A stretch of 64,000 bases of DNA from a virus (lineage: Duplodnaviria > Heunggongvirae > Uroviricota > Caudoviricetes). Position numbers and translations under genes: made by a program. The stretch is taken from positions 64,001 through 128,000 of IMG/VR virus record IMGVR_UViG_3300049460_000121; one strand, written 5' to 3'. A model generated the notes under the pieces. That model saw only the letters and a list, made by a program, of their open reading frames with translations, did no database searches and was not told the DNA's origin. This document shows, in pieces, positions 15,973 to 30,149 of the stretch (positions are counted from its first letter, which is position 1; each line of letters begins with the position of its first letter).

Positions 15973-16007
15973 TATCTCCTACTGCTTTAGTGAATGAGGT
16001 TCAATCT

Positions 16008-16030: not shown

Positions 16031-16040
16031 AGGAGTATTC

Positions 16041-16376
16041 ATGGCCAGTACGTTAGATAACGCAATGATCACAGTCCCGTCGGAATATACCCTGTCGGAC
16101 GAGTACAAGGCGTTCGTGGAATCCATCATCCCCACACTGAGGAATGAGCCGTCCACAAACCTCTTGACGGTGCCAGTGGAAACGGGCTACTTGTTCCGTT
16201 ACGACCTGACATCCTTCTTACTCGATCAAAAAGTAGCCATTGAAGACCATCTGGTGATCATCCGGCTGAATGACCTTAACGGCCCTCAAGACTTCGACGA
16301 ACACACCACCAAACTATTGATCCCGGATCAGCAGTTTCTTGGTCAGCTCAAACAAGTCTATCGCACCCGTATTTAG
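16041..16376 (+). CDS. Small LysM-like / T4 gp53-like baseplate wedge protein
   Basis: AAGGAG RBS; FRYDL..FL...HLVIIRLNDLNGPQDF...LLIPD pattern. Confidence 0.55.
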   Translation: MASTLDNAMITVPSEYTLSDEYKAFVESIIPTLRNEPSTNLLTVPVETGYLFRYDLTSFLLDQKVAIEDHLVIIRLNDLNGPQDFDEHTTKLLIPDQQFLGQLKQVYRTRI

Positions 16377-16435: not shown

Positions 16436-17719
16436 TTACCAGGAACGGCCAGTTCCACGACGGCTGGTGTAACGGCTATTACGGCCGGTATCCCGCCCAC
16501 CACGGCGACCTTCGTCACGACGGCCACGGCCGCTGTCACGATCATCGTCACGGTCCCGGCCAGAACGGCCCAGGATTTCTGCCAGAGAACGACCGCCGCT
16601 GTCATCACGCTCTTCGTCACGGCTGCCACGATCACGCTCACGATCGCGGTCACGCTCTTCCGGTTCTTCACGACGGCTATCACGCCAGTTACGCTCGCGA
16701 GTACCTTCGTCACGACGGTTGCGTTCACGATCACGCTCGTCGCTGTTGCGGCGAGGACGATCTTCTTCCACCAGGCCCAGGTCATCACCACCCAGTTCCA
16801 GCGCTTCCTTCTTCACCGCTTCATCACGCTCTTTGCCACGGTTACCCGGAAGAACCGGGATAGCACGGCCATGGGTCGCTGCGAAGTTGGTGAAGTCCAC
16901 CAGTTGCTCAGTCCATGCCAGTTCAAACCGCAGACCGGACAGGCTGGAGACAGCTGGGGAGTGACGGTCAATCAACTTGTTCAGGTGAGTGGCCATTGCG
17001 TGGAACGACAGCAGCAACGAATGGAAGTATGGCGCCTCGCCGTCACTGGACGACTTGGTGAATGCCTTACGCTCTTCTTCGTTACCCAGGACGTATTCCA
17101 GCAGGTTGACGATCAGGTGCTTGTCCTTGGTCTTGCGAGCCATCTTCACGCCGAAGAACGTCGTGGTGTCTTCAGCACCAGCATCGTCCATGATCGGGAA
17201 GCTAACCACGCAGCTGCGCAGAGCACCGCCTTCGCCACCGTTCTTGAGGAACAGCGAAACCAGACGTTTCTCAGGAGCAGTACCCAGGGCATTGATTACC
17301 CGGACCAGAGTGTCCAGCGTCTTTTGGTCAGCTTCGACCAGCAGTTGCAGGAACTTCGCCGCATCAGCCTTCAGGCCTTTGTGACGTTTCTGGTCAATGG
17401 CCAATTCCATCAGACCGATGATGACTGCCTTGAAGGTTTCTTTCAGACGCAGCTGAACGTATTCCTTGTAGGCATTCAGGACAGGGCTTGGACCCTGGCT
17501 GATCTGCTCGGCCAACGGAGCGAACGCAATACGCCGTTCCCACTGACCGTCTTCCAGAATGGCAGCGGTTGGCAGGCAGAGACGTTTTGGGCCGATCGTT
17601 ACGGGTTTGGCGATGTCATCTGCCAGATACGACAGGAAACCTTCACCACTGGCGTCGAATACACCAACGTCTTTCAAGACATTGGCTTCGAACTCCAATA
17701 CAACTTCTTTCTTTGACAT
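16436..17719 (-). CDS. Conserved core protein (phiKZ gp70 position) with a ~110-aa Arg/Asp/Glu/Gly-rich C-terminal tail
   Basis: AGGAG RBS; synteny; low-complexity tail ending in W. Confidence 0.75.
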   Translation of the reverse strand: MSKKEVVLEFEANVLKDVGVFDASGEGFLSYLADDIAKPVTIGPKRLCLPTAAILEDGQWERRIAFAPLAEQISQGPSPVLNAYKEYVQLRLKETFKAVIIGLMELAIDQKRHKGLKADAAKFLQLLVEADQKTLDTLVRVINALGTAPEKRLVSLFLKNGGEGGALRSCVVSFPIMDDAGAEDTTTFFGVKMARKTKDKHLIVNLLEYVLGNEEERKAFTKSSSDGEAPYFHSLLLSFHAMATHLNKLIDRHSPAVSSLSGLRFELAWTEQLVDFTNFAATHGRAIPVLPGNRGKERDEAVKKEALELGGDDLGLVEEDRPRRNSDERDRERNRRDEGTRERNWRDSRREEPEERDRDRERDRGSRDEERDDSGGRSLAEILGRSGRDRDDDRDSGRGRRDEGRRGGRDTGRNSRYTSRRGTGRSW

Positions 17720-17735
17720 GGGGTATAGCTCCTAA

Positions 17736-19298
17736 TTACCAGACTGGCCGGCCGTCACGACGTCCGCGCGAATCGCGGCTGTCACGGGCGTCCGACACAT
17801 CTGTGCTGAGACTGATGCCGCGGTTGATGTCGACATGGGACGGGGTGGAATCATCACGGGCGTGACGAACACCTTCGGCCAACTTGACGATCTCATCGGA
17901 CAACAGGTCGACGGTTTGGATAGTGTTGCTGAGGGTTGGGGCTACCAACGAGTCAGCGGCGCTGAAGAATGGGAAGTAATGCTCCTCACCCCCGTCAAGA
18001 CTGATCCAGATTTCGATATCCTGGTCAATGTTGGCGTTGATGGTGCAGTCAATATCCATCATGCCACCGTGGCTGATAGCTTGCAGGATGACCGACTCAA
18101 CCGTGGATTCGAAATACTCCAAGGTAGAGGTGGCTTCCAGTCCCTGTACAAACGGCGTGCAGCGCCCAGCCAGTACCCGAGGCTCGCCCATGCGGGCACG
18201 AGTGTTCAGGATGAGGTTGTCAACCTTCGAGTACATGGCGTTGATCATCACCACCGGAAGGCTCTGGGCAATGATGGTAGCTGCCAGGCATTCAGGGGAG
18301 TCCGAGTTCCAGCTACGCGCTTCGGACAGGTTGATGGAGGACTTCCGCATTTCGTACGGCGTGAACGGCATCTGTTCATCTTCATTGAACTCAGGATTCA
18401 TGTCCATGAGCTCGCCAAAGGTGATGTAGCCAGAGTCCATGATGCCGCTGACGCGACGCAACTCTTCCAGGTACGGATCCACGTCCAGGCAGTTCTCAGG
18501 TGCCAGGTCGGAGGCCGAGGCCATGATCAGATCGTCATCTTCACGATCAAGATCGCTACTGCCACGGGCCGAGGTTGCACGGGAGTGTGCGGTCAGGGCA
18601 CGAGACAGGAAGCGGGATGGGTCATTGTTCTCACGGGTCGATGCCCGCAGCTGAGAGCTAAAGGAACCAGTGGTGTTCGTACCGATAGAACCGGACGACC
18701 GCAGATGGCTACCGAATGCAGACTCGGAACCTTTGCGGTTGAACAGATCCATTGGACGCAGGGTCACTGGGGTCAGGTCAGTGCGACGACGCTCGCCATT
18801 AATAGCCGAACGGTTGAGGATCTGGTCATGCGCCTTGATAGACGGCTGCCAGATCTGACTGCCGCCACGGTAAGTGGCTGCTGACATGTGGACGCGAGTG
18901 ATCGAGTTGAAATACATCTTCATCTCAGGATCGAACTTCGCCCGGCCGGACAACTGGCTGTAGCCGGAGTGGTCGGTGTAGCCAACGATGTATTCGTAAT
19001 GGCTGGAGGTACGGCTGGTTTGAATCTCAACCACCATCGCAAACATCAGACGGCGCTCGCCCCAACCACCATCGATCTTTGAATCCATCTTGAAATCGAT
19101 GGACGGAACGATCATGCCTTCGCTTGCAGAGATTGCACTGGCCAGACGCTCGGCGGTAACACTACGACCATCATCGGTCAGGTTAACCACGCGGTCGATG
19201 TCTGACTGGGTGAAGTCGGTGTCGAAGGGACGAATCACGCCCTGCGCGGCACCATTGGTCTCCACCACACTCAATTTCAACAGTTTCATGTTTCCCAC
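17736..19298 (-). CDS. picA: Probable nuclear protein import factor PicA/Imp1 (phiKZ gp69 position)
   Basis: Lies immediately after the gp68-like gene; ~520 aa; GWGERRL.F, GYTD, YFNSI and LRP.D motifs. Mainly a synteny call. Confidence 0.7.
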   Translation of the reverse strand: MGNMKLLKLSVVETNGAAQGVIRPFDTDFTQSDIDRVVNLTDDGRSVTAERLASAISASEGMIVPSIDFKMDSKIDGGWGERRLMFAMVVEIQTSRTSSHYEYIVGYTDHSGYSQLSGRAKFDPEMKMYFNSITRVHMSAATYRGGSQIWQPSIKAHDQILNRSAINGERRRTDLTPVTLRPMDLFNRKGSESAFGSHLRSSGSIGTNTTGSFSSQLRASTRENNDPSRFLSRALTAHSRATSARGSSDLDREDDDLIMASASDLAPENCLDVDPYLEELRRVSGIMDSGYITFGELMDMNPEFNEDEQMPFTPYEMRKSSINLSEARSWNSDSPECLAATIIAQSLPVVMINAMYSKVDNLILNTRARMGEPRVLAGRCTPFVQGLEATSTLEYFESTVESVILQAISHGGMMDIDCTINANIDQDIEIWISLDGGEEHYFPFFSAADSLVAPTLSNTIQTVDLLSDEIVKLAEGVRHARDDSTPSHVDINRGISLSTDVSDARDSRDSRGRRDGRPVW

Positions 19299-19309
19299 TC
19301 CTTACTTAA

Positions 19310-20887
19310 TTAACGGACGTGATCATTCAGCTTGATCAGGATTTCAGCCAAGCGATTGCGGACGCTAGGCGAGATATCCAGGTACTCTGAAAGATCAGCG
19401 CGGTTGTATTCTACAGCGAGCTGTTTAGGGCAGTCGATGAACCAATCGGACCGCATGAACTCTTTGATGATCTCTTCGATGCCCCGCACTGCCGAGTTGG
19501 CAATGAACAGTTGATCGTCACGCTTAGGATCAGGCATCAGGTACGGGTTGATAACATCCAACACGTCCCGGTGCGTTTGGCTAACTTTCGCCTTGCTGAG
19601 TTCAGTGGTGATTGCTGATACGTCCTTTCGGGCAGTCAGCATGATGGCCAAGTCCAGGAATCCCCATTCCCAGAGAATCGTCTGCGCTACAGCCATGTTG
19701 TTCTTCAATGTTTCCATGTCGAACATGTCAATCACCACACCGGCGATAACAGTGGACATGATCCAAGCGGCCAGGCCTTTCTGGGCCCGTGTCGGGTTGA
19801 AGTCTTCAATGGTTGCGATGTGAGCGATAGCCGCTTGCAAACGCTCCGGTTGGTAGTTCGGATCGATTGCGGCAGCGCAAGTGTGGTACTCGTTCACGTA
19901 CAGCTGGATGAGAGTCAACTCACCGGCGGTAATCGCTTCCTTCATCTTGTACATCGACCAGACGGAGGAGTTATCCTCAACTGGCCCAGCTCCGCTCTTC
20001 TTCTCGGCGACTTGCTGTTTGAACTCGGTAGCCATGCGGTCAAACCGGCCATCGATATAGTTGTACAAGATCTTCATCAGGTGATCACGCTCACGCTCAA
20101 TAGAGAGTGGGGCAATCGAGAGCTTACGGATAACGGCCAGAGCCAACAGGTACGTCGGGATTTCTTCCGACGACATGAAGTTCAGTGCCGCGGTGATGTC
20201 GTACGTGGTTTCTTTGAGATTAGCCCGAACGTACACGTCCAAGCGAGTAAACGCTGGGATCTTGTAGAACTTGCTGTTCATGATCAACTGGTAGGAGGTG
20301 AACTCCTTCATGTTGATGTTTGACTCTTTGCCTGCGATCGGCAGATAGAAACCCCAGATTGGGATCATCAGACGCAAGCCCAATGCCACAGCCACCAGAT
20401 CGATGTATTCCTGGAGGCGGTAGGTCAGGGACTTGTAGGTTGGGGTGATCTTGTCTTCAGTCACGTAATCGTCCGACAGTTCCTGCGGTAGCCGGATCTT
20501 CGGATTGGTGACGATGAATTCGCGCAACTGGTCGAACTTGACGATATTGTAGATACCGTTGACTTCACGCATGATGGCACGCGTCAGGTCGTCGATGTTG
20601 CAGTCTTTCGGGTTGGACTGAGTAAAGATACCTTCCAGCTTTTCGTAATGCAGGAACAGCTGGTCCTTCTGATCTTCGGACAAGTACTTCTGGAGAAACT
20701 GGTTGATCTCCGCGAACATGTCAAGATGGCTCCCAATCTCATCGTCCTCACGAACGGAAGCATTGGGACGGGCGGTCGAGTAGCCTCCTGTTGGGAAGAA
20801 CAACTCACCTTCCGTACCGGGTTCCCGCGTTAGCGACACCGCGGAGAAACTTCGTTCGGTGTAGGTAGAGATTTTAAATTCCATCAC
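19310..20887 (-). CDS. Non-virion RNAP sigma-like specificity subunit (phiKZ gp68-like)
   Basis: 525 aa, helical; FAEIN.F and LRLMIPIWG motifs; synteny with the nvRNAP block. Confidence 0.75.
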   Translation of the reverse strand: MMEFKISTYTERSFSAVSLTREPGTEGELFFPTGGYSTARPNASVREDDEIGSHLDMFAEINQFLQKYLSEDQKDQLFLHYEKLEGIFTQSNPKDCNIDDLTRAIMREVNGIYNIVKFDQLREFIVTNPKIRLPQELSDDYVTEDKITPTYKSLTYRLQEYIDLVAVALGLRLMIPIWGFYLPIAGKESNINMKEFTSYQLIMNSKFYKIPAFTRLDVYVRANLKETTYDITAALNFMSSEEIPTYLLALAVIRKLSIAPLSIERERDHLMKILYNYIDGRFDRMATEFKQQVAEKKSGAGPVEDNSSVWSMYKMKEAITAGELTLIQLYVNEYHTCAAAIDPNYQPERLQAAIAHIATIEDFNPTRAQKGLAAWIMSTVIAGVVIDMFDMETLKNNMAVAQTILWEWGFLDLAIMLTARKDVSAITTELSKAKVSQTHRDVLDVINPYLMPDPKRDDQLFIANSAVRGIEEIIKEFMRSDWFIDCPKQLAVEYNRADLSEYLDISPSVRNRLAEILIKLNDHVR

Positions 20888-20910
20888 GGACTCCTAGGTG
20901 AGTGGTCACT

Positions 20911-20940
20911 AGTATAATGTAGCATTGTAAAGTTTTATCA
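20911..20940 (-). promoter_or_regulatory. Putative phage promoter
   Basis: Minus strand reads ATAAAACTTTACAATGCTACATTATACT. Confidence 0.7.
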
Positions 20941-21022
20941 TGAACGGGCATAATTTCCTCGATACAGGCCCCAAAGGGACCTGTACCTTAGATCGAGATA
21001 CCGTGGTTTACTTGGTTAGACC

Positions 21023-21820
21023 CTAGAAAGGGATATCGTCGTCGAAGCTATCGGACGCTGGGGCCGGTGCTTGTTGTGGACGAGGAGCTTGTTGCTGATT
21101 GCCGCCGTTGTAGTTGTTACCGCCACCACCGCCGTTGTTTGGACGATTGTAGTTGTTACCACCACCGCCACCTGGACGTTGGCCACCGTTGGCCTGAGCA
21201 TTCTGCATGCGCTCAAGACGTTTCTTCTTCTGGAACTCTGGTTCTTTCCAGTTCACCGCGAAGTTGGTGTTGTAGATGTCGCCCAACGCTTTGGCCCAAC
21301 CGGCCGCTGCAACTGGGGAGGTGATCTTCAGAGGAGCCGGCTGGCCGTTCTGAGTGATCGGGTGGAAATCACCTGGCTCGAATACGAACTCGACCAGTTG
21401 CATCTTCTTGGCAGCCAATGCGATGGTAACAACGCCATCGGCGCGCTTCTGAACCTGGGTCTTCGAAATGATGACTCGGTCTTTGGAGCGAATGGACTTG
21501 CCCTGATCGCGGTCCCAGATGAACGGGTGACCCCAGTTCTCGACTTCGAACGAAATCTCGTTAGGGTAGGCCGCTACCTTTTCCAGAAGGATCAGCAGAG
21601 TGTTGAACTCTTTTGGATCCATCGGGCCCTCGATTTTCATCGGGTAGCCTTTCTCGGTTTTCATGCCGAGGTCGACTTCGATGCAAGGGTTGTTTTCGAT
21701 CAACTTGATGCGCAGGCTTGGTGGGTATGCGCCTTCCTGGATTGGTTTGCCATACAGACGCAGCTTACTGTCATCCATGCAGCCTGGGTCACGACGAGCT
21801 TTCTCTGGTGCGTTCGACAT
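21023..21820 (-). CDS. Protein with a Gly/Asn/Gln linker and SSB-type C-terminal tip DSFDDDIPF (phiKZ gp67 position); putative ssDNA/RNA-binding protein
   Basis: Beta-rich N-terminal domain; C-terminus matches the bacterial SSB tip DDDIPF. Confidence 0.7.
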   Translation of the reverse strand: MSNAPEKARRDPGCMDDSKLRLYGKPIQEGAYPPSLRIKLIENNPCIEVDLGMKTEKGYPMKIEGPMDPKEFNTLLILLEKVAAYPNEISFEVENWGHPFIWDRDQGKSIRSKDRVIISKTQVQKRADGVVTIALAAKKMQLVEFVFEPGDFHPITQNGQPAPLKITSPVAAAGWAKALGDIYNTNFAVNWKEPEFQKKKRLERMQNAQANGGQRPGGGGGNNYNRPNNGGGGGNNYNGGNQQQAPRPQQAPAPASDSFDDDIPF

Positions 21821-21875
21821 TAATACTTCTCTTGACGAGTGGGGAATAGTGCAGTGCAACTAATGCGCACGACAT

Positions 21876-21887
21876 GTAAAATTTAAA
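21876..21887 (-). promoter_or_regulatory. Putative middle-type promoter element (AAATTTTAC)
   Basis: Matches the AAanntTAC-type motif described for phiKZ middle promoters. Confidence 0.45.
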
Positions 21888-22740
21888 AGCGGTAGAGGTC
21901 TTTCACCAGCGCTTCGAGTGCCGGATCACGATTCTGCTCCACACAATAGATGACGAAGTCTTTCGTCGTCATTGGTGTCCATTTGTTCTTCTCAGACAGC
22001 TCGATCAACTTCTGACGAACCTTGAGATTCATAGGAGTGAACGTGACGTTGTCACCGAACATTTGGACCGTCATCCGGTCAAACGGAATGCGCTCCAGCT
22101 CTTTGCCGTCCTTTAACTTGGTGTTCCACAGGGATGGCGGCTTAACGGCGCCTGTGTGGGATTCCAGCAAAGTCAGGCTGTCAAACTTGTAACGCTCAAG
22201 TAGATCCACAGGATAGTGAGAAATCAACAGCACCTTGCTGTGGACCTCTGGAAACTTCCGGGTCAGGGTCAAATACGGGATATGGCCCTGGTACTCACTA
22301 TCGATCACCTTGAGGACTTGTTCCTCGAAGATGTGTGAAGCTTTCTGCCCTGGTGACGTTGGGACCTTGAGGATCGCCTTGTTGAAGGTGTAGGTCAGGT
22401 CGTTGTAGCTACATTTATAGAAGGCTACATCAAACCGACCATCCCCATGCTCCACGCAGACCGTTTCAATCGCCCGCATCTCATTGACGATGTACTCAGC
22501 CACCGTCTGCTCAGTGAGGTGCTTGCGGTCCTCGGTCTTGATAGAACCCATCAGGTTACGGATCAGTGTCCGCATATTAACCCAGAGGGTGTCGTGGTCC
22601 TGGATAGGCGGGTGAGCGTTGGGGGCGTCTGGGAAGATGCCGATCAACGACTCAATAGCCAGGGACGTGGAGATGGAGATGGGAAACTGACCAACCGCCC
22701 GATTGGTCAAGAGTTCCCGCGAAACTGATTCTAAGGACAT
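21883..22740 (-). CDS. Putative PIN/FEN-like 5'-3' nuclease-fold protein
   Basis: LWVNMRTLIRN, LLISHYPVDLL, LLESHTG and QMFGD (H3TH-like GD) motifs. Confidence 0.55.
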   Translation of the reverse strand: MSLESVSRELLTNRAVGQFPISISTSLAIESLIGIFPDAPNAHPPIQDHDTLWVNMRTLIRNLMGSIKTEDRKHLTEQTVAEYIVNEMRAIETVCVEHGDGRFDVAFYKCSYNDLTYTFNKAILKVPTSPGQKASHIFEEQVLKVIDSEYQGHIPYLTLTRKFPEVHSKVLLISHYPVDLLERYKFDSLTLLESHTGAVKPPSLWNTKLKDGKELERIPFDRMTVQMFGDNVTFTPMNLKVRQKLIELSEKNKWTPMTTKDFVIYCVEQNRDPALEALVKDLYRF

Positions 22741-22761
22741 GGGATCACTCCTAATGAGCGA

Positions 22762-22962
22762 TTATTGGTTACCCGGCCAAGTGACGGCGTCGGCTTTACC
22801 GGTGAAGACCATCCAGGCAAGTTTGATGCGGCGGACAATGCCGCCATAGCCCAGTGGTCGTGCTGGAACCCATTGATTCCCAATGTTGACCGAATTACCT
22901 ACCTCACCGGTAGTGGATTTGATCAGTTGGGTCAGGGTGTACAGGCGTGGGGTGTTCTTCAT
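22762..22962 (-). CDS. Small phage hypothetical protein
   Basis: ATGA overlap with the nuclease stop; GGAGG RBS; WVPARP...RIKLAWMVFTGKADA. Confidence 0.65.
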   Translation of the reverse strand: MKNTPRLYTLTQLIKSTTGEVGNSVNIGNQWVPARPLGYGGIVRRIKLAWMVFTGKADAVTWPGNQ

Positions 22963-24146
22963 GCAGCCTCCGCGAGGATTCGTTTGATACAGTCGAGTAC
23001 GGGTTTCTCTACATCTTTCACACGCGACCACAGGAGGTCGTTGATCGTATCAGGACGGATAGCCACGATGACTGGCCGTTCGATAAGCTCGGTTGTGTCT
23101 GGCGTGTAGGCATCAGCTTCCACCACCTTGGTCGTGATGTTGAACTGAGGGAACCGGGCCTTGATCTCAGCCAGGGCTGCGTACACGGGATCCTCACGAC
23201 TGATCTCCAACCGGATATGGCTACCGGATGGGAGGTTCTCACGACCCTCCAGGAACTTGTACGCAGCTTTGATCTGCACACCCTTGAGGTCGAAGGTCGA
23301 GAAGATAGTAGCGTCGTCATTGACGATGAAGAGTTCGTTAGCCGCTGTCCAATCTTTACAAATCGTGAACTGGAGGTGGCCTTTGTCCTCCTCCTCATTA
23401 TGCCGCAAACGCTCAGGGGAGCCGGGCACAGTGATTCGCCCACAGGTGGTGTGGGTGTGGTGGTGGCCGATGTAGATCCGCTCTGTCACGATCGAGTGGT
23501 AGTTCTCCACATTGTGGCTGACCACGGTGCGGATTGGCTCTTGGTACGTGAACATGCCGTGCATAAACGCATATTGTACCTGAGGGACTCCACGTTGACG
23601 CAGGAGCTCGTTTACCTGCATCCAGGTAACACTGGCGTCGTGGTTTACTTCGTCCGGCACATAAAGCGCCAGAGGCCCTCCAGCGTACAACTCATCAATC
23701 GCCAGCGTGCCGTAGTACTTGATGTCGAGGTTGATGTTCGACACTTCGTTAATCAATGGCAGCCAACGCGACTGTTTGTTGTCGTGGCTAGGGGTACCTT
23801 CCAGAATCCGTACAGCGACGTTGTGTTTGGCGCACTGACGGAGGAAGATCTCGATCCACCTGGTGATCAGCAATGCATCATCGCTGTCGTAGGTCAATCG
23901 TTTGTCGAATAAGTCACCAGTAATCATGATCATGTCAAGAAGCTTTAACCGCTCCTCGGGGAACATGGTCATCAGGGTCTTGATCACTTTGCTGGCGTGG
24001 ACTCGTCCATGTCCCAAATGGACGTCGCTGATCAGCGCCACGGTATAACCAGCCGCTACTTCACGGATGGCAGCAGTTATACCGTTGAGCTTAACGCGGA
24101 GGATGCGAGTCTCAGTAGATGAGGTCATCGTCTGAGGAGTCGTCAT
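22959..24146 (-). CDS. SbcD/Mre11-like metallophosphoesterase nuclease
   Basis: DVHLGH, GDLFD, GTPSHD, MHG, GHHH and PGS motifs. Confidence 0.92.
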   Translation of the reverse strand: MTTPQTMTSSTETRILRVKLNGITAAIREVAAGYTVALISDVHLGHGRVHASKVIKTLMTMFPEERLKLLDMIMITGDLFDKRLTYDSDDALLITRWIEIFLRQCAKHNVAVRILEGTPSHDNKQSRWLPLINEVSNINLDIKYYGTLAIDELYAGGPLALYVPDEVNHDASVTWMQVNELLRQRGVPQVQYAFMHGMFTYQEPIRTVVSHNVENYHSIVTERIYIGHHHTHTTCGRITVPGSPERLRHNEEEDKGHLQFTICKDWTAANELFIVNDDATIFSTFDLKGVQIKAAYKFLEGRENLPSGSHIRLEISREDPVYAALAEIKARFPQFNITTKVVEADAYTPDTTELIERPVIVAIRPDTINDLLWSRVKDVEKPVLDCIKRILAEAA

Positions 24147-24762
24147 GGGTCTCTTCTGGTTGCGGGGCTGGTAGTGCCGCTTGTGTGGTATTGCGTTTCT
24201 TGGCCAGTGCCAGGATCTCGTCAGCTTGAGGTCCGAGCAGTTCTTCCATAGGTATCTGGTAGAACTTGTAAATATCTACCAACAACATAATCGCATCGGC
24301 GCGATGATGCATTTCGGTTTGAGGCTTATGGGCCTCGTAGATACCGTCTTCGATAGCCATCACACCGCGCATGTCGCCGTTGACGATCATATCGGTCTGT
24401 TGCTGTACGATGTGGTGGGTTGTGGTGAAACGACCCTCAGGCGGCGTTGTCTTGAGCTCAATGTCAATGAATGCTGGTGGGCAGACAAACAGCAACTCAC
24501 CGGAATCATTGACGATGTTCATCGGGTTGTTCAGGCCATCAGCCGTGTTCAACCAAACGCCCAGGTCTTCACAGACCTCGTTACGTACACGCTTGCGTAC
24601 GATAGGCAGTATGACCGCCTGGAAGTACTTCTCCCGCACGTTACGGATTCGGGCTGAGCTACCGGCGTTGATCGCGGCAACCGCACTGTCGAAGCCTTCC
24701 AGGCCCCGACGTACGATTTCTTGATAAGTGTGGTCGGCTTGGGCTTGGGTGAATTGGGTCAT
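24112..24762 (-). CDS. Hypothetical protein, probably conserved
   Basis: AGGA RBS; acidic C-terminus. Confidence 0.7.
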   Translation of the reverse strand: MTQFTQAQADHTYQEIVRRGLEGFDSAVAAINAGSSARIRNVREKYFQAVILPIVRKRVRNEVCEDLGVWLNTADGLNNPMNIVNDSGELLFVCPPAFIDIELKTTPPEGRFTTTHHIVQQQTDMIVNGDMRGVMAIEDGIYEAHKPQTEMHHRADAIMLLVDIYKFYQIPMEELLGPQADEILALAKKRNTTQAALPAPQPEETHDDSSDDDLIY

Positions 24763-24822
24763 AAATGAATTCCTGTCAAGCTGGAGGGTTTTCACCCTCC
24801 AGCTGTGATTGTTACGGCCTAA

Positions 24823-25422
24823 TTACTGAACCGCTGCTGCCACAGTCGCGGCTTCAGAGGATTTCAGCAGTTCTTCAGGACTGGCGCTGTCCAGCTTTTC
24901 GCGCAGAGCTTCGGTAGCCTGGAACATGTCGGTCATGGCTTCCATGTGCGCTTCGATGCCGGCGGCGGTAGTCACGTAGAAGACTAGACCTGGCTGCACT
25001 GCCTGAGACAGAACCAGCTTGGACAGCATTTCCAGAGGAGCAGCTTCCAGAGGCATTGCTTTCCAGACCGGACGGGTCATCTGCACGCCATTCACTTCGT
25101 GCGGTTCCAGGACCAGCTTGCCTTCGGCGTCTTTGGCTTCTTCTTCGAACTTGACGAAGAACTCACCTTCGTTGATGCCGACGGTTGCACGAGCCGAACC
25201 GCGGTAGTAGGTGCCGACTACTACTGGACGGAACTGAGCACGCTCGTCCTTGGCACGACGTTCCTGAACCAGGCCCAGCAGGAAGCCCAACAGGGATTCA
25301 GCCTGGATGGCCTTGTTTTCAGGGATGCTCAGCACTTCGGTCATGGTACCGGCTACGAAGGCACGCAGCTCTTCGGTAGTTTGTGGGAACGCGATCGGTG
25401 CAGGGGTTTGAACTTCAGACAT
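24823..25422 (-). CDS. Hypothetical protein with highly expressed codon bias
   Basis: AAGGA RBS; hairpin downstream at about 24779-24803. Confidence 0.75.
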   Translation of the reverse strand: MSEVQTPAPIAFPQTTEELRAFVAGTMTEVLSIPENKAIQAESLLGFLLGLVQERRAKDERAQFRPVVVGTYYRGSARATVGINEGEFFVKFEEEAKDAEGKLVLEPHEVNGVQMTRPVWKAMPLEAAPLEMLSKLVLSQAVQPGLVFYVTTAAGIEAHMEAMTDMFQATEALREKLDSASPEELLKSSEAATVAAAVQ

Positions 25423-25451
25423 GGTACTTCCTTAATAGGCGGGTTTTTTGA

Positions 25452-25877
25452 TTACGAGGCGTAAACGATGGCACCATTACTAACGTTTACAATGGACTTG
25501 AGGGCTGAATCTCGAGTCGTCAGCGCGTACCCAACACTGGTGCTGGTGGTGCCTGCTGCTGTACTGTCGGTCACCGTCGCCTCAACTTTCAGGTTGATTC
25601 CAGGATCGTCCCCATCGTTCTCGACGGATACGTTCACTGTGGCGCTGGAGAAGAATTTTGCCAGGAATTTCTGGAGTTCCGCTTGAACCTCACCCGGAAT
25701 GGTTAGGTCATCATCCCCGTAGAGTTGAATGATCTTGGCCAAAGAGGTGATGTTGCCACGGTACAGAGTGGTCTGGCTATGTTTTGCGAAGAAGAAACAG
25801 CACATCAGGTAGTCGATCTTGATATCGATATCAGCGATGACCCCTTCCTTGCCTAGTCCTAGGATGCTCGTGGACAC
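25452..25877 (-). CDS. Hypothetical protein; possible gp25-like baseplate/sheath initiator
   Basis: GAGG RBS with GTG start; size and helix-helix-beta layout fit the gp25 fold (inference). Confidence 0.5.
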   Translation of the reverse strand: MSTSILGLGKEGVIADIDIKIDYLMCCFFFAKHSQTTLYRGNITSLAKIIQLYGDDDLTIPGEVQAELQKFLAKFFSSATVNVSVENDGDDPGINLKVEATVTDSTAAGTTSTSVGYALTTRDSALKSIVNVSNGAIVYAS

Positions 25878-25916
25878 AGGATGATACCTCGGCCATGGAA
25901 TACATCCTATTACGAC

Positions 25917-25961
25917 AAAAAAAGAAAGGGAGTAGGGGAGCCGAAGCTCCCCAGTCCTTTA
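25917..25961 (-). terminator. Hairpin (UUCG-type loop) plus U-tract terminator
   Basis: ggggagccgaagctcccc preceded by aaaaaaagaaag; 27 bp identical to 60999-61025. Confidence 0.8.
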
Positions 25962-26582
25962 CAACGTCTTGCGGGTTGGACTGCCAGGATCCTGCTTGCC
26001 CCGGTCCAGAATCTCTGCGAGAGTCCGGTGGGTGTCGCGGGCGGCATCTTTCTCGTTCTGGTTGAACTTGGCGTCGCCGTGTTCATCCACAATTCCAAGG
26101 TAAGTAACGAAAGTATCTTCGCCCTCTTCACCTTCGGCATGCACACCGTTGTAGATCTCACGGTACATGTCGTGTTCCCGACCGATGCTGTCGCGCTCGT
26201 CGTCTTCGTACAGACCGTCGTACCCATCTGCCTGACCTTTATACCACAGGGCCCGGTAGCGTGGGAACGCCATGACGATTGCGCGGTTACGCGGTTTGGC
26301 ATTCTGGAAGTCGCCCAGGTCCACCAGGGGAAGAATGCGGTCTTCATCCCAGCGTTTACCGAAGCGATCCCGCATACCTTCCACACGATCGCGGATGGAG
26401 CTGAAGTCGAAGTTGTCCAACGCTTCTTTCGCGCGGCCCAGGTACCGTGAAGCAAAGTTCCCAGCCGTGCGCGCGACTTTGTCGATACGATCCCGGAAGA
26501 ACTCCAGGTCGTTACGCGACATCATCCCGTGTGTCGATGCGTGTATCACATCGGCGTCACCGTCGCTCACAATGTACGCCAT
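25959..26582 (-). CDS. Conserved protein downstream of the nvRNAP beta' N subunit (approximately the phiKZ gp59/Imp3 position)
   Basis: GGAGG RBS. The identity rests on synteny only. Confidence 0.55.
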   Translation of the reverse strand: MAYIVSDGDADVIHASTHGMMSRNDLEFFRDRIDKVARTAGNFASRYLGRAKEALDNFDFSSIRDRVEGMRDRFGKRWDEDRILPLVDLGDFQNAKPRNRAIVMAFPRYRALWYKGQADGYDGLYEDDERDSIGREHDMYREIYNGVHAEGEEGEDTFVTYLGIVDEHGDAKFNQNEKDAARDTHRTLAEILDRGKQDPGSPTRKTL

Positions 26583-26587
26583 GATAG

Positions 26588-28078
26588 TTAACCCTCCAAT
26601 TCAACAGAATAATCTTCACCTTCCTCAAGTCTAGCGTTAATGGTTGACAATACCGGAGCCGGGATCATCGCATGGTCGCTCACTTGGAAAGGTACGTCCA
26701 AGTCCATGATGCCAGTGCTAGGGGCCATCCGATCGAAAGCGCGGGCTGTGAAATTATCCAGCGCCAGTTGACCAGACATGTAGTCGCCGTCGAAGTCGGC
26801 GTTTGGTGCCTTGAGGCAGAGTACCGAGATACTGGTACTCAGTTGGTTCGGATCACGCTTGATGGTTCTGATGTAGAAGCGCTGAGTGGAGCCACGCTTC
26901 AGGGACGGGAATCGCGTGAATGTACACGGTATCCCTTTGCCGCCAGGCGTTTCCGCGATCAACTGATCGAAGATTCGCTCCAGCTTGTGGTGAGTTCGTA
27001 GAACGTTGTCGTAGATGAGGGTGAAGATCTCGTTGGGAGTATAACCTTCTCTACGTAATTTGTTCGCAATGTGAAGTTTTAACGTTAAGACCGCAGTGCC
27101 CCAAGGAATGTCGAGTTCTTCGTGGTTATGCGGCGTGTGTTTGGAAGTGATCACCGTCCGGAAAGTCCAGTGCGGATCCACCCCGTAGGCCAACTTGCGG
27201 AAGATCCCCTTCTTCGGGAAGATCTTGTTCTTTTCGTTCTCCTGATAGTACATCACCAGGTTAGCCAGAGATCGAGCCACGCGGGACTCTACCTGAGACA
27301 TGGAACGTTTGCGGGCACGTTCAGTGTTCGCAATGGACAGCAATGCGTTCAACGCAGGAGCCATTTTCGGATCCGCGTAGATTCTTTCCCCTACGGTCTC
27401 CAGAATGAACCCGATCTTACTCGGGAATGGCAGGTATTTGCAGAACACCACGTTACGGATCATGTCGATAAATCGAAGCATTTCCTTCCCTTCTTTGTCA
27501 GCAAAGAAAGTCCGTGTGCGGCATAAAGCAGTAATGATGGCGTCAAAGTTGTCATGGAACGAGGTCAGACCACGTTTGAAACCCATACGGGTAACGACAG
27601 CTTCAACGGGACAGTCCTCTTTCAAGGCCTGATAAGACGGGTCCAAGAACCAGTCCAGTGCAGAGAATCCATTCTTTAACAGCTTCTTGCGGAGCTGCGT
27701 ATAAACGGTTAGGTTTAGGAATCCAGGGATCCCATCCGGTACGCGTACCCACACCAGAGGTTCAATACTCTGTTCAGTTACGGGCAAGCATTCAAAACCA
27801 CAGTTCGGACACATGCGATGAACCAGGTGCCCACCTTTTGTCTCGCGGCAGGGGCAGGAGGGAACGTTAGAGAACACGTCACCATCGTAGCTACTGTACA
27901 CAAGACGGTTAAACCGGACTCGACCTTCTTCCGTCGACAGGTCAATGTCGTTTGCCAACACTGGCTCGGTACCCAAACGGCGAAACAGATCGTCGTAATC
28001 TACGATGATCGGATAGATGCCCTTACGTCCAATGTACCGGAATCGGGGCTCTGTAATATCGCCTGTAATGAGTTCCAT
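26588..28078 (-). CDS. Non-virion RNA polymerase beta' N-terminal/catalytic subunit (phiKZ gp55-like, intron-free)
   Basis: NADFDGD catalytic motif; SCPC...CPNC Zn finger; KKGIFRK; FRTVITS; RFPSL. Confidence 0.95.
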   Translation of the reverse strand: MELITGDITEPRFRYIGRKGIYPIIVDYDDLFRRLGTEPVLANDIDLSTEEGRVRFNRLVYSSYDGDVFSNVPSCPCRETKGGHLVHRMCPNCGFECLPVTEQSIEPLVWVRVPDGIPGFLNLTVYTQLRKKLLKNGFSALDWFLDPSYQALKEDCPVEAVVTRMGFKRGLTSFHDNFDAIITALCRTRTFFADKEGKEMLRFIDMIRNVVFCKYLPFPSKIGFILETVGERIYADPKMAPALNALLSIANTERARKRSMSQVESRVARSLANLVMYYQENEKNKIFPKKGIFRKLAYGVDPHWTFRTVITSKHTPHNHEELDIPWGTAVLTLKLHIANKLRREGYTPNEIFTLIYDNVLRTHHKLERIFDQLIAETPGGKGIPCTFTRFPSLKRGSTQRFYIRTIKRDPNQLSTSISVLCLKAPNADFDGDYMSGQLALDNFTARAFDRMAPSTGIMDLDVPFQVSDHAMIPAPVLSTINARLEEGEDYSVELEG

Positions 28079-28100
28079 ACTTCTCTCCGGTGGGACATAA

Positions 28101-28137
28101 ATAAAAAATAGAGCAGGAGGGGTTTCCCCCTCCGCTC
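28101..28137 (-). terminator. Terminator after chimallin
   Basis: ggagggg-tttc-cccctcc with an adjacent A-tract. Confidence 0.7.
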
Positions 28138-28163
28138 CAGGTTTACGCTACCACTAAAGGAAC

Positions 28164-30149
28164 TTAGTAGTAGTTGCCACCGCTGTACGGACGGCGACGG
28201 CGATCAGCGCTGTCGTCGGAACGATTGCGGCGAGTACGACCGATTTCGCTGGTTGCGTACTGGCTGTAGCCATCGTGACCGATCGAGCGACGAGTCGACA
28301 GACCATCGTTGGACGAAACGTGCGGAGACATCTTCGCACCATCCAGCGAGTCTTGCAGAGCGATCAGGTAGTCCAGGTCGAAGGCCAGTTGCTCGGCAGT
28401 GCCGGTAACGTGCAGACCAGGAACCACTTTACGCAGGATCGCGTAACGCTCAGCCAGGTTGAACTCGATCGAACGACGGGTGTCTTCGAAAGTAGCCTGG
28501 AAGTCCTGTACCAGGTCCAGGTTCTTCTCGCCAACACGAGTCAGCAACGCAGGGACGTTCCATTCACGGATGTCACGGCGGTTCTGGTTCTCGTCCAACC
28601 AGGTGCCCAGCAGGGTGCGGCTACCGGTAGTGTAGACCGGACGGTAGTCGTTACCCAGGTTACGCTTGGCCAACGCATCGCTGAAGCGATTGCCGGTCAG
28701 AACGTCTGCCGAAGCATGCAGCAGGTCGATCAAGTCGTCCAGCTCGGTGCCAGGCTCTGCGATCGCGATGCGCTCGTAGATGCTCAGTACCCAGGACTTC
28801 TCGCCCGAGGATGGAACGGTCATGCCGAACGCGACGTCAGGCTTGACGGTCAGGTCGAGGTAATCGGCCAGATCGTTGTCGCTGATGTTCGGACCGATGT
28901 CCTTGGCTACGCAGGCAGCTTCTTCGTCCGGGTTCATCAGGAACAGATGGCCCAGGGAAGTCAGAGGCTTGAGACCTTCGGCCAGAGTGGCGCGAGGACG
29001 CAGCATGGTTGCCCAGCGGTAGTCGTTGGACTGTTGCACTGCCTGAGCGATCAGGAGTTGTGCCAGTTCCAGCGAGTACGGGAAGTCGCCCGAGCCAACA
29101 GAGTTGATGTTCAACACTGCTTGCCAGAACGGGCTCTCGGTATCACGACCACGACGGCGACGGCCGCCGAAACGACGCTGTTCGCTTTCGCCCTTCTCGT
29201 CGTAGGAGACGAACATGTCCAGGCCGCAGCGGATGTCGCCCATTTTGGTACGGGAGAACAGGTTGTCTTCGCCGTTCGGCTCGGAGTAGTACAGGTTGGT
29301 GGTCACGTCGCTACGAACAGGCAGACCCGAAGTGTCGATGATCTGCTTGCCGGTGTAGTCGAACGCGATTTCCAGACGGGAGCCTTTACCCATCTTGTCC
29401 GGGCTAACGCGGAACTGCGAGGAACGAGTGCCCGACTTGGCGTCGATCATGTTCTCGCGGAAGCCGCAGATGGCCTCCATCGCGTTATCGTAGATGTGAG
29501 CAACGATCTGCTCCATCTCTTTCTCGGTACGGTGGGTGAAGGTGTCAGCCAGGATAACCTGATTGCCAACCACACGGGCAGTACCGCCAACGGCCGCTTG
29601 AGCCTGATCACGCACGATGTTGATGTACGTTTCGGTCAGGTGATCTTCTGGCAGAACCAGAGCGTCGAAGGTTTCGCCACGCTCAACCAGCGGACGGGTT
29701 TGCACGTCGCCGCTTTGCTCGATCAGCAGGATGTAGGTCAGGGCGTAACGCTCGGCACCGATGGTGGCCGGCAGAACAACCAACAGGCTGGATTGCGAAG
29801 AACGCGCCAGCGAGCCATCCATCGGGATGACCTTGAACAGGTTACGCTTGGTTTCAGCAGGAACGCCAGGCTTGTCGTAAGTCTTGGCGTTCTCGAAGGT
29901 ATTAACCAGCAGAGACAGAACCGCATCGCTCAGGCCGCCCATGGATGGACGAGCTTGGAGGCGGGACATGTCAGCGAAGGTCACCTGAGTTTCGCGGTTT
30001 TCATCGCGACGGCTGCCACGGCTGCCACGGTCGCTGTCGCGGGAATCACGCTCGTCACGGCTACGATCTTCACGCAGTTCGGAACGGGTGTCTTCGCGAC
30101 GCGGCTCTTTAGCATTGTCCGGGGCGTCGGTTACAAAAGTATCGCTCAT
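28164..30149 (-). CDS. chmA: Chimallin (major phage nuclear shell protein)
   Basis: 661 aa; directly upstream of the beta' N subunit; strong codon bias; SGLPVRSD motif; disordered N-terminus and aromatic C-terminal end. Confidence 0.85.
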   Translation of the reverse strand: MSDTFVTDAPDNAKEPRREDTRSELREDRSRDERDSRDSDRGSRGSRRDENRETQVTFADMSRLQARPSMGGLSDAVLSLLVNTFENAKTYDKPGVPAETKRNLFKVIPMDGSLARSSQSSLLVVLPATIGAERYALTYILLIEQSGDVQTRPLVERGETFDALVLPEDHLTETYINIVRDQAQAAVGGTARVVGNQVILADTFTHRTEKEMEQIVAHIYDNAMEAICGFRENMIDAKSGTRSSQFRVSPDKMGKGSRLEIAFDYTGKQIIDTSGLPVRSDVTTNLYYSEPNGEDNLFSRTKMGDIRCGLDMFVSYDEKGESEQRRFGGRRRRGRDTESPFWQAVLNINSVGSGDFPYSLELAQLLIAQAVQQSNDYRWATMLRPRATLAEGLKPLTSLGHLFLMNPDEEAACVAKDIGPNISDNDLADYLDLTVKPDVAFGMTVPSSGEKSWVLSIYERIAIAEPGTELDDLIDLLHASADVLTGNRFSDALAKRNLGNDYRPVYTTGSRTLLGTWLDENQNRRDIREWNVPALLTRVGEKNLDLVQDFQATFEDTRRSIEFNLAERYAILRKVVPGLHVTGTAEQLAFDLDYLIALQDSLDGAKMSPHVSSNDGLSTRRSIGHDGYSQYATSEIGRTRRNRSDDSADRRRRPYSGGNYY

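Follow-up and report, generated by a model that had tools for sequence, protein, structure and literature searches.

The window analysed here, a stretch of 64,000 nucleotides, sits inside the 267-kb genome of an uncultured chimallivirus. It encodes, all on its minus strand, ChmA (chimallin), PicA/Imp1 and a homologue of phiKZ gp70 / PhiPA3 gp64 (the gp70-like protein). The genes and segments considered below are the following.

16436..17719, minus strand: phiKZ gp70 / PhiPA3 gp64 homologue, 427 aa
16439..16810, minus strand: gp70-like disordered tail, residues 304-427, ending Gly-Arg-Ser-Trp (AF2, composition)
16565..16597, minus strand: island within the gp70-like tail, residues 375-385, Gly-Gly-Arg-Ser-Leu-Ala-Glu-Ile-Leu-Gly-Arg (conservation, AF2)
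16811..17719, minus strand: gp70-like folded N-domain, residues 1-303 (tblastn, phrog_3520, AF2)
17736..19298, minus strand: PicA/Imp1 homologue, 520 aa
17739..17837, minus strand: PicA C-terminal tail, residues 488-520, Arg/Asp/Ser-rich, ending Gly-Arg-Pro-Val-Trp (AF2)
17838..19298, minus strand: PicA/Imp1 folded body, residues 1-487 (homology, AF2)
19310..20887, minus strand: homologue of the nvRNAP subunit gp68 (phrog_3209, E=1.1e-86), used as a composition control
21023..21859, minus strand: ChmC/Imp6-like protein, its tail rich in Asn/Gly/Gln and its tip acidic-aromatic (phrog_3284; phiKZ gp67 position), taken as a control because its disordered region, also on a shell protein, is of another flavour
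28164..30149, minus strand: ChmA, major nuclear-shell protein, 661 aa
28167..28292, minus strand: ChmA C-terminal segments, namely CTS1-equivalent (residues 620-641), Arg-rich linker (642-652) and CTS2-equivalent (653-661)
29139..29198, minus strand: ChmA internal loop, residues 318-337, with a Phe-Gly-x-Arg-Arg-Arg cluster between acidic residues
29934..29975, minus strand: ChmA NTS-equivalent, residues 59-72, intra-tetramer docking segment (alignment)
29976..30149, minus strand: ChmA N-tail, residues 1-58, upstream of the segment aligning with the 201phi2-1 NTS
43026..43106, minus strand: weaker Arg/Asp/Glu/Ser C-terminal tract, residues 203-229 of the 43023..43712 product (composition scan)

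The original prediction had named the three proteins from the sequence, and Pfam, PHROG, PDB and tblastn matches bear it out; the peptides that it quoted were all found where it had placed them, on the minus strand. The 28164..30149 product matched Pfam PF25677 (28.5 bits, cut-off 27), phrog_4795 'nuclear shell protein' (E=2.8e-41) and, in the PDB, chimallin 7sqt (E=3.8e-10) and PhiPA3 PhuN 8fne (E=3.4e-7), and by these profile and solved-chimallin matches it is classed as a chimallin family member. The 17736..19298 product matched PHIKZ069 (tblastn E=5e-18, 90% coverage), PhiPA3 063 (E=6e-16; 88-90% coverage for these two matches) and phrog_3141 (E=2.3e-59), and its gene is flanked by gp68 and gp70 homologues in the same order as in phiKZ. 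Judged by homology and gene position it is PicA/Imp1, whose known members show homology to it along 90% of its length and lie in the same gene order. PicA (phiKZ gp69, PhiPA3 gp63, Goslar gp174) is an essential import specificity factor, needed for selective protein import and seen as a punctum on the shell (PMC11087766; bioRxiv 10.1101/2024.03.27.586873). The 16436..17719 product matched PHIKZ070 (tblastn E=6e-20) and PhiPA3 064 (E=3e-25) over residues 20-306 only, as well as phrog_3520 (E=2.9e-58). Its gene lies directly downstream of the PicA gene, the position also held by phiKZ gp70 / PhiPA3 gp64, so that N-domain homology and position together assign it to this family. In PhiPA3, gp63 (PicA) and gp64 are each found at the shell and each co-purify with ChmB (bioRxiv 10.1101/2023.05.18.541317); the suggestion that the gp70-position protein was newly implicated by its tail had thus been overtaken by the published shell localisation of gp64.

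ChmA, PicA and the gp70-like protein carry segments that are rich in Arg and Asp/Glu and poor in hydrophobic residues (RD tracts), and such segments are scarce among the other ORFs of the genome. A genome-wide scan of 20-aa windows (at least five Arg, at least five Asp/Glu, at most three hydrophobic residues) flagged only ChmA (including its loop), PicA, the gp70-like protein, 43023..43712 on the minus strand and one ORF beyond the window (genome 1143..2306), together with a few doubtful short or antisense ORFs. The claim that within the window this composition is missing elsewhere bar 43023..43712 therefore stands, save for those doubtful ORFs, and the proposed search for further RD-rich proteins adds the one ORF beyond the window. 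The 43023..43712 product has 229 aa with a Lys/Pro/Ala/Gly-rich N-terminus, and had no match in Pfam or PHROG. Other polar segments of the genome are G/N/Q-, S/T- or P-rich, and one is a Lys/Asp/Glu tail without Arg. The tracts do not stem from DNA microsatellites; a single repeat, an imperfect hexamer run of 28 bp, was found. Across 34-80 metagenomic homologues the tails are kept, and their composition is maintained despite indels.

In ChmA, the RD tracts correspond, by alignment, to known disordered parts of the protein: the N-tail, a loop and the CTS1-CTS2 linker. The N-tail begins with a conserved extreme N-terminal Met-Ser..Phe motif, followed by an Arg/Asp/Glu/Ser-rich spacer (about residues 16-53) whose sequence is poorly conserved while its composition is retained. 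For the N-tail the counts are R13 K1 D8 E7 in 45 aa (FCR 0.64, NCPR -0.02, kappa 0.03). Residues 59-72 align with 48-61 of 201phi2-1 in a 40-sequence alignment and are conserved clade-wide, and the C-terminal segments align with 201phi2-1 CTS1 (590-611), linker (612-621) and CTS2 (622-631). The NTS/CTS1/CTS2 docking layout, as placed by alignment, is thus present, in the order described for ChmA of 201phi2-1 and Goslar: N-tail, NTS, core, CTS1, disordered linker, aromatic CTS2. In 201phi2-1 the linkers are unresolved, CTS2 is the last 10 residues, and deletion of the N-tail leaves shell incorporation unaffected (bioRxiv 10.1101/2022.02.14.480162), so at least that N-tail is dispensable for assembly. 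The extreme N-terminal motif and the Phe-Gly-x-Arg-Arg-Arg loop motif are clade-specific; the loop cluster is conserved in most of 34 clade homologues. All three proteins have the aromatic ends originally noted (ChmA Tyr, PicA Trp, gp70-like Trp). The CTS2-equivalent ends Tyr-Tyr, with Tyr or Phe last in 34/34 clade homologues; the ChmA end is aromatic as proposed, but belongs to an already-known lattice-docking segment.

Disorder of the PicA and gp70-like tails is supported by AF2. The whole PicA model has a mean pLDDT of 83 and a pTM of 0.83, with low-confidence stretches only within the tail (pLDDT <50 at 488-506 and 508-520). This tail ends in Trp in 28/37 clade homologues, while in phiKZ and PhiPA3 it is rich in Gln/Pro/Asn, with Val-Leu or Leu-Leu as its end. 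Our literature search on PicA found no account of the tail or its terminal motif. Goslar PicA bearing a C-terminal sfGFP tag lost complementation (PMC11087766), and in that phage a free PicA C-terminus therefore appears to be needed.

The N-domain of the gp70-like protein is predicted with pLDDT of at least 90 in nearly every 10-residue block to about residue 290, whereas most of 304-427 falls below 50. An RD-rich tail had been proposed at ~110 aa; it is real, with a length of about 124 aa. Arg makes up 30% and Asp/Glu 30%, with no Lys (R36 K0 D20 E16 in 122 aa; FCR 0.59, NCPR 0.00, kappa 0.09), and the same 122 aa hold 13 hydrophobic residues; three residues of the tail are aromatic. Among 80 homologues tail Arg ranges over 14-30% and Asp/Glu over 17-36%, tail length is conserved, and 55/79 end in Trp. 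The tail starts acidic and becomes basic and RG-rich towards its end: charge is negative over the first 40 aa in 71/77 homologues and positive over the last 30 aa in 76/77, with RG/GR dipeptides at 3.2 per 30 aa there against 1.0 elsewhere in the tail (at least three in the last 30 aa of 41/77). The island contains the sole predicted helix C-terminal of residue 314 (379-383) and is recognisable in clade relatives and, by eye, in the gp70 tails of phiKZ, 201phi2-1 and DT01. The tail of phiKZ gp70 / PhiPA3 gp64 is likewise long and disordered and holds an island resembling Ser-Leu/Ile-x-Asp-Leu/Phe-Leu.

A lineage-specific C-terminal motif is common to PicA and gp70, [R/K]-x-Trp in this clade and Gly-Leu-Leu/Ile in most phiKZ-like phages. 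This sharing, as read from the sequences, appears to be new here, as do the charge gradient, RG-rich end and helical island of the gp70 tail. Trp ends are rare (6/275 ORFs genome-wide), and the adjacent PicA and gp70-like genes account for two of those 6. Per phage, matched PicA/gp70 ends are RSW/RSW, G[KR]GW pairs, DW/DW, F/F (L006) and LGLL/LGLL (PhiPA3); discordant ends occur in Eowyn (N/W) and in pVa-21, PhiEaH1 and pEa48 (aliphatic/Arg). Terminal Trp arose once and was jointly lost once, and an independent-pairs test gave 2/2 pairs and is underpowered; with so few independent events, the concordance is a weak point.

Arg exceeds Lys 7-17:1 in the tails across homologues: 1090:64 in gp70 tails against 616:1089 in the folded domain of the same proteins, 214:32 in PicA tails against 1463:619 in cores, and 245:17 in the ChmA N-tail (25 sequences: 19 clade homologues, 6 isolates). 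A ratio of 17:1 in the gp70 tail and 0.57:1 in its folded domain excludes mutational or proteome-wide bias as the source, and these counts indicate that Arg is preferred over Lys by selection. The expectation of Arg-type mixed-charge domains was thereby upheld; the gp70 tail and ChmA N-tail have the sequence features of an R-MCD (disorder, Arg with Asp/Glu, Arg not Lys). The Arg-enriched mixed-charge domains of nuclear-speckle proteins (bioRxiv 10.1101/771592) are likewise disordered, with R + D/E at about 60% and Arg in place of Lys, and both they and the tails here are near-neutral with a net-positive end. Unlike the speckle domains, the tails belong to a bacterial virus and span 33-124 aa, and the speckle class is defined by length-dependent condensation while the likeness here is one of sequence and predicted disorder. 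A supposed resemblance to an FG-nucleoporin meshwork fails, since the tails have no FG repeats and the tracts are charge-based except for the Phe of the conserved ChmA loop motif.

Together, the tails look more like flexible tethers with small docking motifs than like a condensate system. The best explanation, to which we give a probability of roughly 0.45, is that the RD tracts are disordered Arg mixed-charge segments serving chiefly as flexible tethers for short docking motifs. The ChmA N-tail, surface loop and CTS1-CTS2 linker flank NTS, CTS1 and CTS2, the peptides by which a protomer docks into its neighbours. The PicA (33-aa) and gp70 (124-aa) tails both finish in the [R/K]-x-Trp carboxy-terminus, gp70 adding the small helical island and the RG-rich basic end, and the terminal motifs may anchor the two proteins at one shared site, either on the shell itself or on a protein bound to it. 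The Arg/acid chemistry would keep the tails soluble and give them a weak multivalent attraction to RNA, to one another or to the acidic faces of the shell. This tether reading draws on the match of the ChmA tracts to the 201phi2-1 scheme, tail disorder and conserved composition, the shared and rare PicA/gp70 ends, the gp70 charge gradient and RG enrichment, the failed Goslar PicA-sfGFP complementation, the presence of PhiPA3 gp63 and gp64 at the shell with ChmB, and selection for Arg in a genome where a Lys-based mixed-charge tail exists elsewhere. Against it stand the few independent motif events, the discordant lineages, the harmless 201phi2-1 N-tail deletion, and phiKZ gp70, which has been used as a nuclear (interior) protein and was not pulled down with Imp1 (bioRxiv 10.1101/2024.03.27.586873).

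An unlikely alternative, though the strongest of those considered, is that flavour-matched tails form a cohesive, condensate-like phase of the nuclear-speckle type, co-localising ChmA, PicA and gp70 and gating import or mRNA export. Pure RD repeats do condense, and R-to-K substitution abolishes this (bioRxiv 10.1101/771592). Moreover, the disordered segments of these shell proteins switch flavour together between lineages. The ChmA N-tail, loop and linker are Arg/acid-rich here but Gln/Ala/Pro/Thr-rich in 201phi2-1, phiKZ and PhiPA3 (the PhiPA3 loop aligned to the RD loop is Gln/Pro-rich), and across ChmA, PicA and gp70 the switch is from RD-rich to Gln/Pro/Met-rich in phiKZ-like phages. For the gp70 tail, DT01, RSL2, Moabite, FBKp24, pVa-21, PhiEaH1 and PCH45 share the RD type seen here, and a Gln/Met/Pro/Gly type is found in Goslar, Eowyn, pEa48 and phiKZ-like phages. 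A lack of co-variation had originally been named as refuting the idea, but the R+D+E contents of the three tails do vary together in 21-43 phages, and continue to do so when phylogenetically independent contrasts are taken (PIC; correlations 0.44-0.71). However, gp70 tail R+D+E varies equally with that of the PicA and ChmA folded cores (PIC r 0.57 for each) and with the nvRNAP subunit gp68 (rho 0.58), so that a tail-specific code is not demonstrated. In addition, positive and negative charges are evenly interspersed and cancel out (kappa 0.03-0.09), the 33-aa PicA tail offers low valency, the tails lack FG or other hydrophobic repeats, and PicA forms a single punctum and not a shell-wide phase (PMC12908238). 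In DT01, RSL2 and FBKp24, the PicA tail is not RD-rich despite RD-rich gp70 tails. The neighbouring ChmC (PhiPA3 gp61 / phiKZ gp67 Imp6) does make RNA condensates through its own N/G-rich C-terminal tail (PMC11077065), and it too is shell-associated, encoded in the same gene block and disordered in its tail, with an aromatic end. The ChmC tail differs in being of Asn/Gly/Gln type with an acidic tip, N/G-rich in every lineage examined, its R+D+E independent of the other tails.

It is improbable that the gp70 tail is chiefly a nucleic-acid-binding module with a basic, RG/RGG-like end and a start that is acidic and autoinhibitory; it would then engage phage RNA or DNA at the inner shell face, and the likeness to ChmA and PicA would be incidental. 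The charge gradient, RG enrichment and strong Arg preference are in keeping with this, as is the listing of phiKZ gp70 among nuclear proteins (bioRxiv 10.1101/2024.03.27.586873). For the N-domain, Foldseek found no match among known structures and the best VIA Z was 5.6; ribosome-binding HPF/RaiA/pY chains, hibernation factors with a beta-alpha-beta-beta-beta-alpha domain, recur among the weak matches (VIA-align Z 4.2-5.3, ~90 residues), below the noise level that the tool gives. Furthermore, phiKZ-like gp70 tails are nearly chargeless, and tail nucleic-acid binding therefore cannot be a family-wide function.

We hold it similarly improbable that the composition lacks a specific function, with unconstrained spacers drifting along with a lineage-wide shift in proteome charge and the three-protein similarity a by-product. 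Tail R+D+E does follow folded cores and an unrelated polymerase subunit, flavour differs wholesale between lineages, and tail sequence is poorly conserved with many indels. Set against this are the divergent R:K ratios within one protein, the different flavours of other disordered regions in the genome (the Lys/acid tail included), the constant ChmC tail, and the conserved length, charge gradient, island and Trp end of the tails. Nor is composition accounted for by GC content (rho 0.32): RD tails are seen at 45-47% GC, whereas Noxifer, at 55%, has none. Equally doubtful is a lineage-specific, flavour-matched low-complexity code by which the ChmA, PicA and gp70 tails would cohere into a selective phase or docking zone at an import/export site. 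If true, it would require all partners to change flavour in concert when the lineage does, and would amount to a viral counterpart, at a protein shell, of the low-complexity cohesion of nucleoporins or speckles.

Returning to the tether reading, the tails offer handles on how PicA and gp64/gp70 attach to the chimallin lattice: a shared carboxy-terminal motif that differs between lineages, and, in the gp70 tail, the conserved island and the RG-rich end with its graded charge. The PicA motif also offers an explanation for the failed complementation by C-terminally tagged PicA. The Arg-specific tail chemistry is swapped wholesale for Gln/Pro/Met in the model Pseudomonas phages; if tail flavour is functional, this would be a condensate-type sequence grammar acting on the organelle of a bacterial virus.

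The window covers bases 64001-128000 of a single contig of 267,467 bp (53.6% GC), and its minus strand carries the conserved 'nucleus block' of chimalliviruses in the same gene order as phiKZ gp54-gp74.

Genes of the nucleus block in the window
28164..30149, minus strand: ChmA (chimallin, the major nuclear-shell protein); matches Pfam PF25677, phrog_4795 and PDB chimallins
26588..28078, minus strand: nvRNAP beta'
22959..24146, minus strand: SbcD-like, at the phiKZ gp65 position
21023..21859, minus strand: ChmC/Imp6-like
19310..20887, minus strand: gp68-like
17736..19298, minus strand: PicA/Imp1, the import specificity factor; tblastn match to PHIKZ069 (E=5e-18), also to PhiPA3 063
16436..17719, minus strand: homologue of phiKZ gp70 and PhiPA3 gp64 (E=6e-20 and 3e-25), over residues 20-306 only
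13789..15972, minus strand: nvRNAP beta

A megablast search with a 14.5-kb region found no close DNA-level relative among GenBank phages, and the window phage is known from metagenomes only. Among isolates, Pseudomonas phage pPa_SNUABM_DT01 comes closest, with protein identity of 24-34%, and one IMG/VR relative is 84-97% identical over the five proteins compared. Protein searches of metagenomes recovered 39 PicA, 34 ChmA and 80 gp70-type homologues, with identity down to ~30%, and gene order was identical in eleven PicA-centred loci of the clade to which the window phage belongs. ChmA partners were matched to loci either through contigs of equal length or by C-terminal overlap; for two loci (L003 and L004) the partner is a cluster representative ~91-94% identical, not the exact protein. 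A small opposite-strand gene (15957..16376, plus strand; ~111-114 aa) separates the gp70 homologue from nvRNAP beta. This strand-flipped gene is strikingly well conserved: every clade locus has it in that place (L002-L012, ~12.9-13.3 kb), and DT01, Goslar, 201phi2-1, RSL2, Moabite and further isolates carry it too. Loci L002, L003, L005, L006, L008 and L009 contain homing-endonuclease-type ORFs (HNH, GIY-YIG, LAGLIDADG) at varied sites; insertions in relatives include an 851-853-aa ORF with LAGLIDADG after the second nvRNAP gene. Apart from the homing-endonuclease-type insertions, the nucleus block of those relatives is collinear.

The original prediction read Arg- and acid-rich (RD) tracts as a candidate condensate-type system at the phage nuclear shell, and all the peptides it quoted were found. 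A genome-wide scan (20-residue windows with Arg >=5, Asp/Glu >=5 and hydrophobic residues <=3) matched two long stretches of the gp70 homologue, the C-terminus of PicA, and both the N-terminus and an internal loop of ChmA. Further matches were the ORF at 43023..43712 (minus strand) and, beyond the window, a single ORF at genome 1143..2306. The remaining matches, a handful of short or antisense ORFs, are probably not genes. No family match was found for 43023..43712 (Pfam, PHROG) or for genome 1143..2306; the former encodes a 229-aa orphan that starts with a Lys/Pro/Ala/Gly-rich region resembling histone H1, looks folded in its middle and closes with a weak Arg/Asp/Glu/Ser tail.

A second scan of the whole genome, for any long hydrophobic-poor segment, revealed other disordered-looking tracts of very different composition: some are of Gly/Asn/Gln or Ser/Thr type or rich in Pro, an RG-rich stretch belongs to a 2658-aa protein, and one tail is made of Lys/Asp/Glu without Arg (1083-aa protein at G000:C1:184687-187938, outside the window; K 24%, D/E 34%). 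Because these tracts differ in make-up, the Arg/acid flavour is mainly a trait of the shell proteins, not one that all low-complexity sequence of the phage shares. Against the Arg-only shell-protein tails, the Lys/acid tail of the 1083-aa protein is a useful contrast from within the genome. DNA slippage was rejected as the origin of the tracts, which are not recent DNA repeats.

AlphaFold2 was run with family alignments on the gp70 homologue and PicA. In the gp70 homologue, pLDDT was at least 90 in nearly every block up to ~residue 290 and mostly below 50 across residues 304-427, where a single short helix was predicted (379-383); PicA was well folded until ~485, with pLDDT below 50 at 488-520. 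For the folded gp70 N-domain (16811..17719, minus strand), Foldseek and VIA returned no convincing structural relative and ESM Atlas no usable match; weak HPF/RaiA/pY matches (Z 4.2-5.3 over ~90 aligned residues) do not reach the level that the tool sets for noise, and serve as a lead only.

The tracts are strong, well-mixed, near-neutral polyampholytes (FCR ~0.6, NCPR ~0, kappa 0.03-0.09). All of them, together with the terminal residues, are kept in the IMG/VR relative with 84-97% identity, which has additional indels in the gp70 tail. Apart from one truncated outlier, gp70 tails span 74-137 aa, with 14-30% Arg and 17-36% Asp/Glu except in the most distant homologue. Trp is the last residue of 55 of 79 gp70 tails and 28 of 37 PicA homologues, but of only 6 of the 275 ORFs in the window phage genome; ChmA closes with Tyr or Phe in each of its 34 homologues. 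Conservation extends to the layout of the gp70 tail: its first 40 residues are acidic (negative in 71 of 77 homologues), its middle is neutral, and its last 30 residues are basic (positive in 76 of 77) and denser in RG/GR dipeptides (3.2 vs 1.0 per 30 aa), leading to the terminal Trp. Counts of Arg and Lys pooled across 43-47 phages separate the tails from the rest of each protein.

Arg:Lys counts in tails and folded parts
gp70 homologue: tail 1090:64; folded part 616:1089
ChmA: N-tail 245:17; core 883:442
PicA: tail 214:32; folded part 1463:619

Mutational or GC bias could not give opposite ratios within one protein, and therefore Arg is under selection in the tails.

We aligned the clade ChmA proteins with those of 201phi2-1, Goslar, phiKZ, DT01, RSL2 and Moabite. 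The docking segments of 201phi2-1 ChmA fall at window residues 59-72 (the solved NTS, 48-61), 620-641 (CTS1, 590-611) and 653-661 (CTS2, 622-631, the extreme C-terminus), and the linker 612-621, unresolved in the structure, aligns to 642-652. The RD-rich N-terminal stretch of window ChmA is therefore the 'N-tail'. By the same alignment, the Arg-rich C-terminal stretch is the CTS1-CTS2 linker and the aromatic end is CTS2. In 201phi2-1, deletion of the N-tail leaves shell incorporation unaffected, CTS2 is a lattice-docking peptide, and both faces of the shell are acidic (bioRxiv 10.1101/2022.02.14.480162). The internal loop (29139..29198, minus strand) carries Phe-Gly-x-Arg-Arg-Arg between acidic flanks in most of the 34 clade homologues, whereas the PhiPA3 loop at the aligned position is Gln/Pro-rich.

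The PicA and gp70 homologues of one phage tend toward like C-terminal ends, a sharper signal than the co-variation of tail composition described below. In the window clade both end in [R/K]-x-Trp, for example Arg-Ser-Trp in both or Gly-Lys/Arg-Gly-Trp in both, another pairing shares an Asp-Trp end, and in a sister pair (L006/L009) Trp has been lost from both proteins (Phe/Phe; Ile/Phe). In most phiKZ-like phages both proteins end in Gly-Leu-Leu/Ile, with Leu-Gly-Leu-Leu at both ends in PhiPA3 and the aliphatic end alone kept in phiKZ (Val-Leu, Leu-Leu) and Noxifer gp70 (Ser-Leu-Leu); the Goslar ends are Asn-Phe and Arg-Phe. These likenesses suggest that the two C-termini may share one receptor site. 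Such a site fits the failure of Goslar PicA with C-terminal sfGFP to complement (PMC11087766), and the shell localisation of PhiPA3 gp63 and gp64, which both co-purify with ChmB (bioRxiv 10.1101/2023.05.18.541317). Several lineages are discordant, and independent events are few (one gain and one joint loss of Trp; one origin of the Leu-Leu state), with significance out of reach of an underpowered independent-pairs test of the last residues. At the position preceding the terminal Trp, PicA and gp70 agreed in ~6 of 22 pairs by hand count, vs ~2 expected; this count was set aside because the pairs are phylogenetically non-independent. The idea that the PicA and gp70 ends mimic ChmA CTS2 was not supported, as ChmA ends differ from them (Tyr-Tyr in the window phage; Trp-Tyr or Phe-Tyr in phiKZ-like phages).

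The ChmC/Imp6-like protein (21023..21859, minus strand) ends differently, in an Asn/Gly/Gln-rich linker and an acidic-aromatic tip of the Asp-Phe-Asp-Asp-Asp-Ile-Pro-Phe type, the same motif that forms the C-terminal tip of bacterial SSB. Across the clade genomes examined this tip hardly varies, whereas phiKZ, 201phi2-1 and Goslar have a degenerate form; the ChmC paper makes no mention of SSB (PMC11077065). Since the phrog match starts only at residue 14 of the ORF, the Met at that position is the likely true start. A second SSB-tip-like end within the nucleus block belongs to a 227-aa protein upstream of the SbcD-like gene (24112..24795, minus strand; phrog_5171), with a Pro/Gln-rich stretch and an acidic tip finishing in Leu-Ile-Tyr.

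We compared the R+D+E fraction of the ChmA N-tail, ChmA C-end, PicA tail, gp70 tail and, as a control, ChmC tail in up to 49 phages (32 clade genomes and 17 isolates; 43-47 per comparison). The four RD segments correlated with one another at raw Spearman values of 0.61-0.72, and their correlations with the ChmC tail were not significant (-0.13 to 0.38).

Phylogenetically independent contrasts of the R+D+E fraction
gp70 tail and ChmA C-end: r 0.71, p 1e-4
gp70 tail and ChmA N-tail: r 0.58, p 0.0015
gp70 tail and PicA tail: r 0.44-0.49, p <=0.003

The tails thus co-vary across phages as predicted, but not specifically with one another: the gp70 tail correlates as well with the folded cores of PicA and ChmA (0.57 each, independent contrasts) and with the nvRNAP subunit gp68 (rho 0.58), which weakens the inference drawn from it. 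Qualitatively, the family divides into two flavours. Arg/acid tails occur in the window clade, DT01, RSL2, SURPRISE13, Moabite, FBKp24, pVa-21, PhiEaH1 and PCH45, and Gln/Pro/Met/Asn/Gly tails in phiKZ, PhiPA3, 201phi2-1, Phabio, Noxifer, Viktualia, Goslar, pEa48, Eowyn and Yong. ChmA N-tail flavour tracks that of the gp70 tail in isolates where both could be read, more weakly in Moabite and Goslar, and PicA follows only in part (not RD-rich in DT01, RSL2 or FBKp24). The ChmC tail is Asn/Gly-rich in every lineage examined, so disordered segments do not simply share one make-up throughout a lineage. GC content was rejected as the driver (rho 0.32), with RD tails present at 45-47% GC (pVa-21, PCH45, Moabite, FBKp24) and absent at 55% (Noxifer).

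These data are compatible with a putative condensate formed by the RD tails. Tail flavour switches in concert between lineages, and the preference for Arg over Lys is shared with the mixed-charge domains of nuclear speckles, where it is a known rule (bioRxiv 10.1101/771592); the lack of tail-specific co-variation counts against such a condensate. The proposed analogy to FG-nucleoporins fails on its defining feature, since the tails have no FG repeats.

Earlier publications describe the disorder of the ChmA tails, condensate formation by the ChmC tail and the shell localisation of gp63/gp64. In the literature examined, we found no description of the Arg/acid flavour, its selection or the two-flavour split of the family, nor of the gp70 tail architecture or the shared PicA/gp70 C-terminal motif. 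Taken together, the best-supported reading is that the tracts serve as tethers of the Arg-type mixed-charge kind, kept by selection and presenting docking motifs. In ChmA these are the known NTS and CTS peptides; in PicA and the gp70 homologue they would be the shared C-terminal motif, to which gp70 would add its helical island and RG-rich terminus. Tails of such chemistry would suit weak multivalent contacts with the faces of the shell, both of which are acidic in 201phi2-1, or with RNA.
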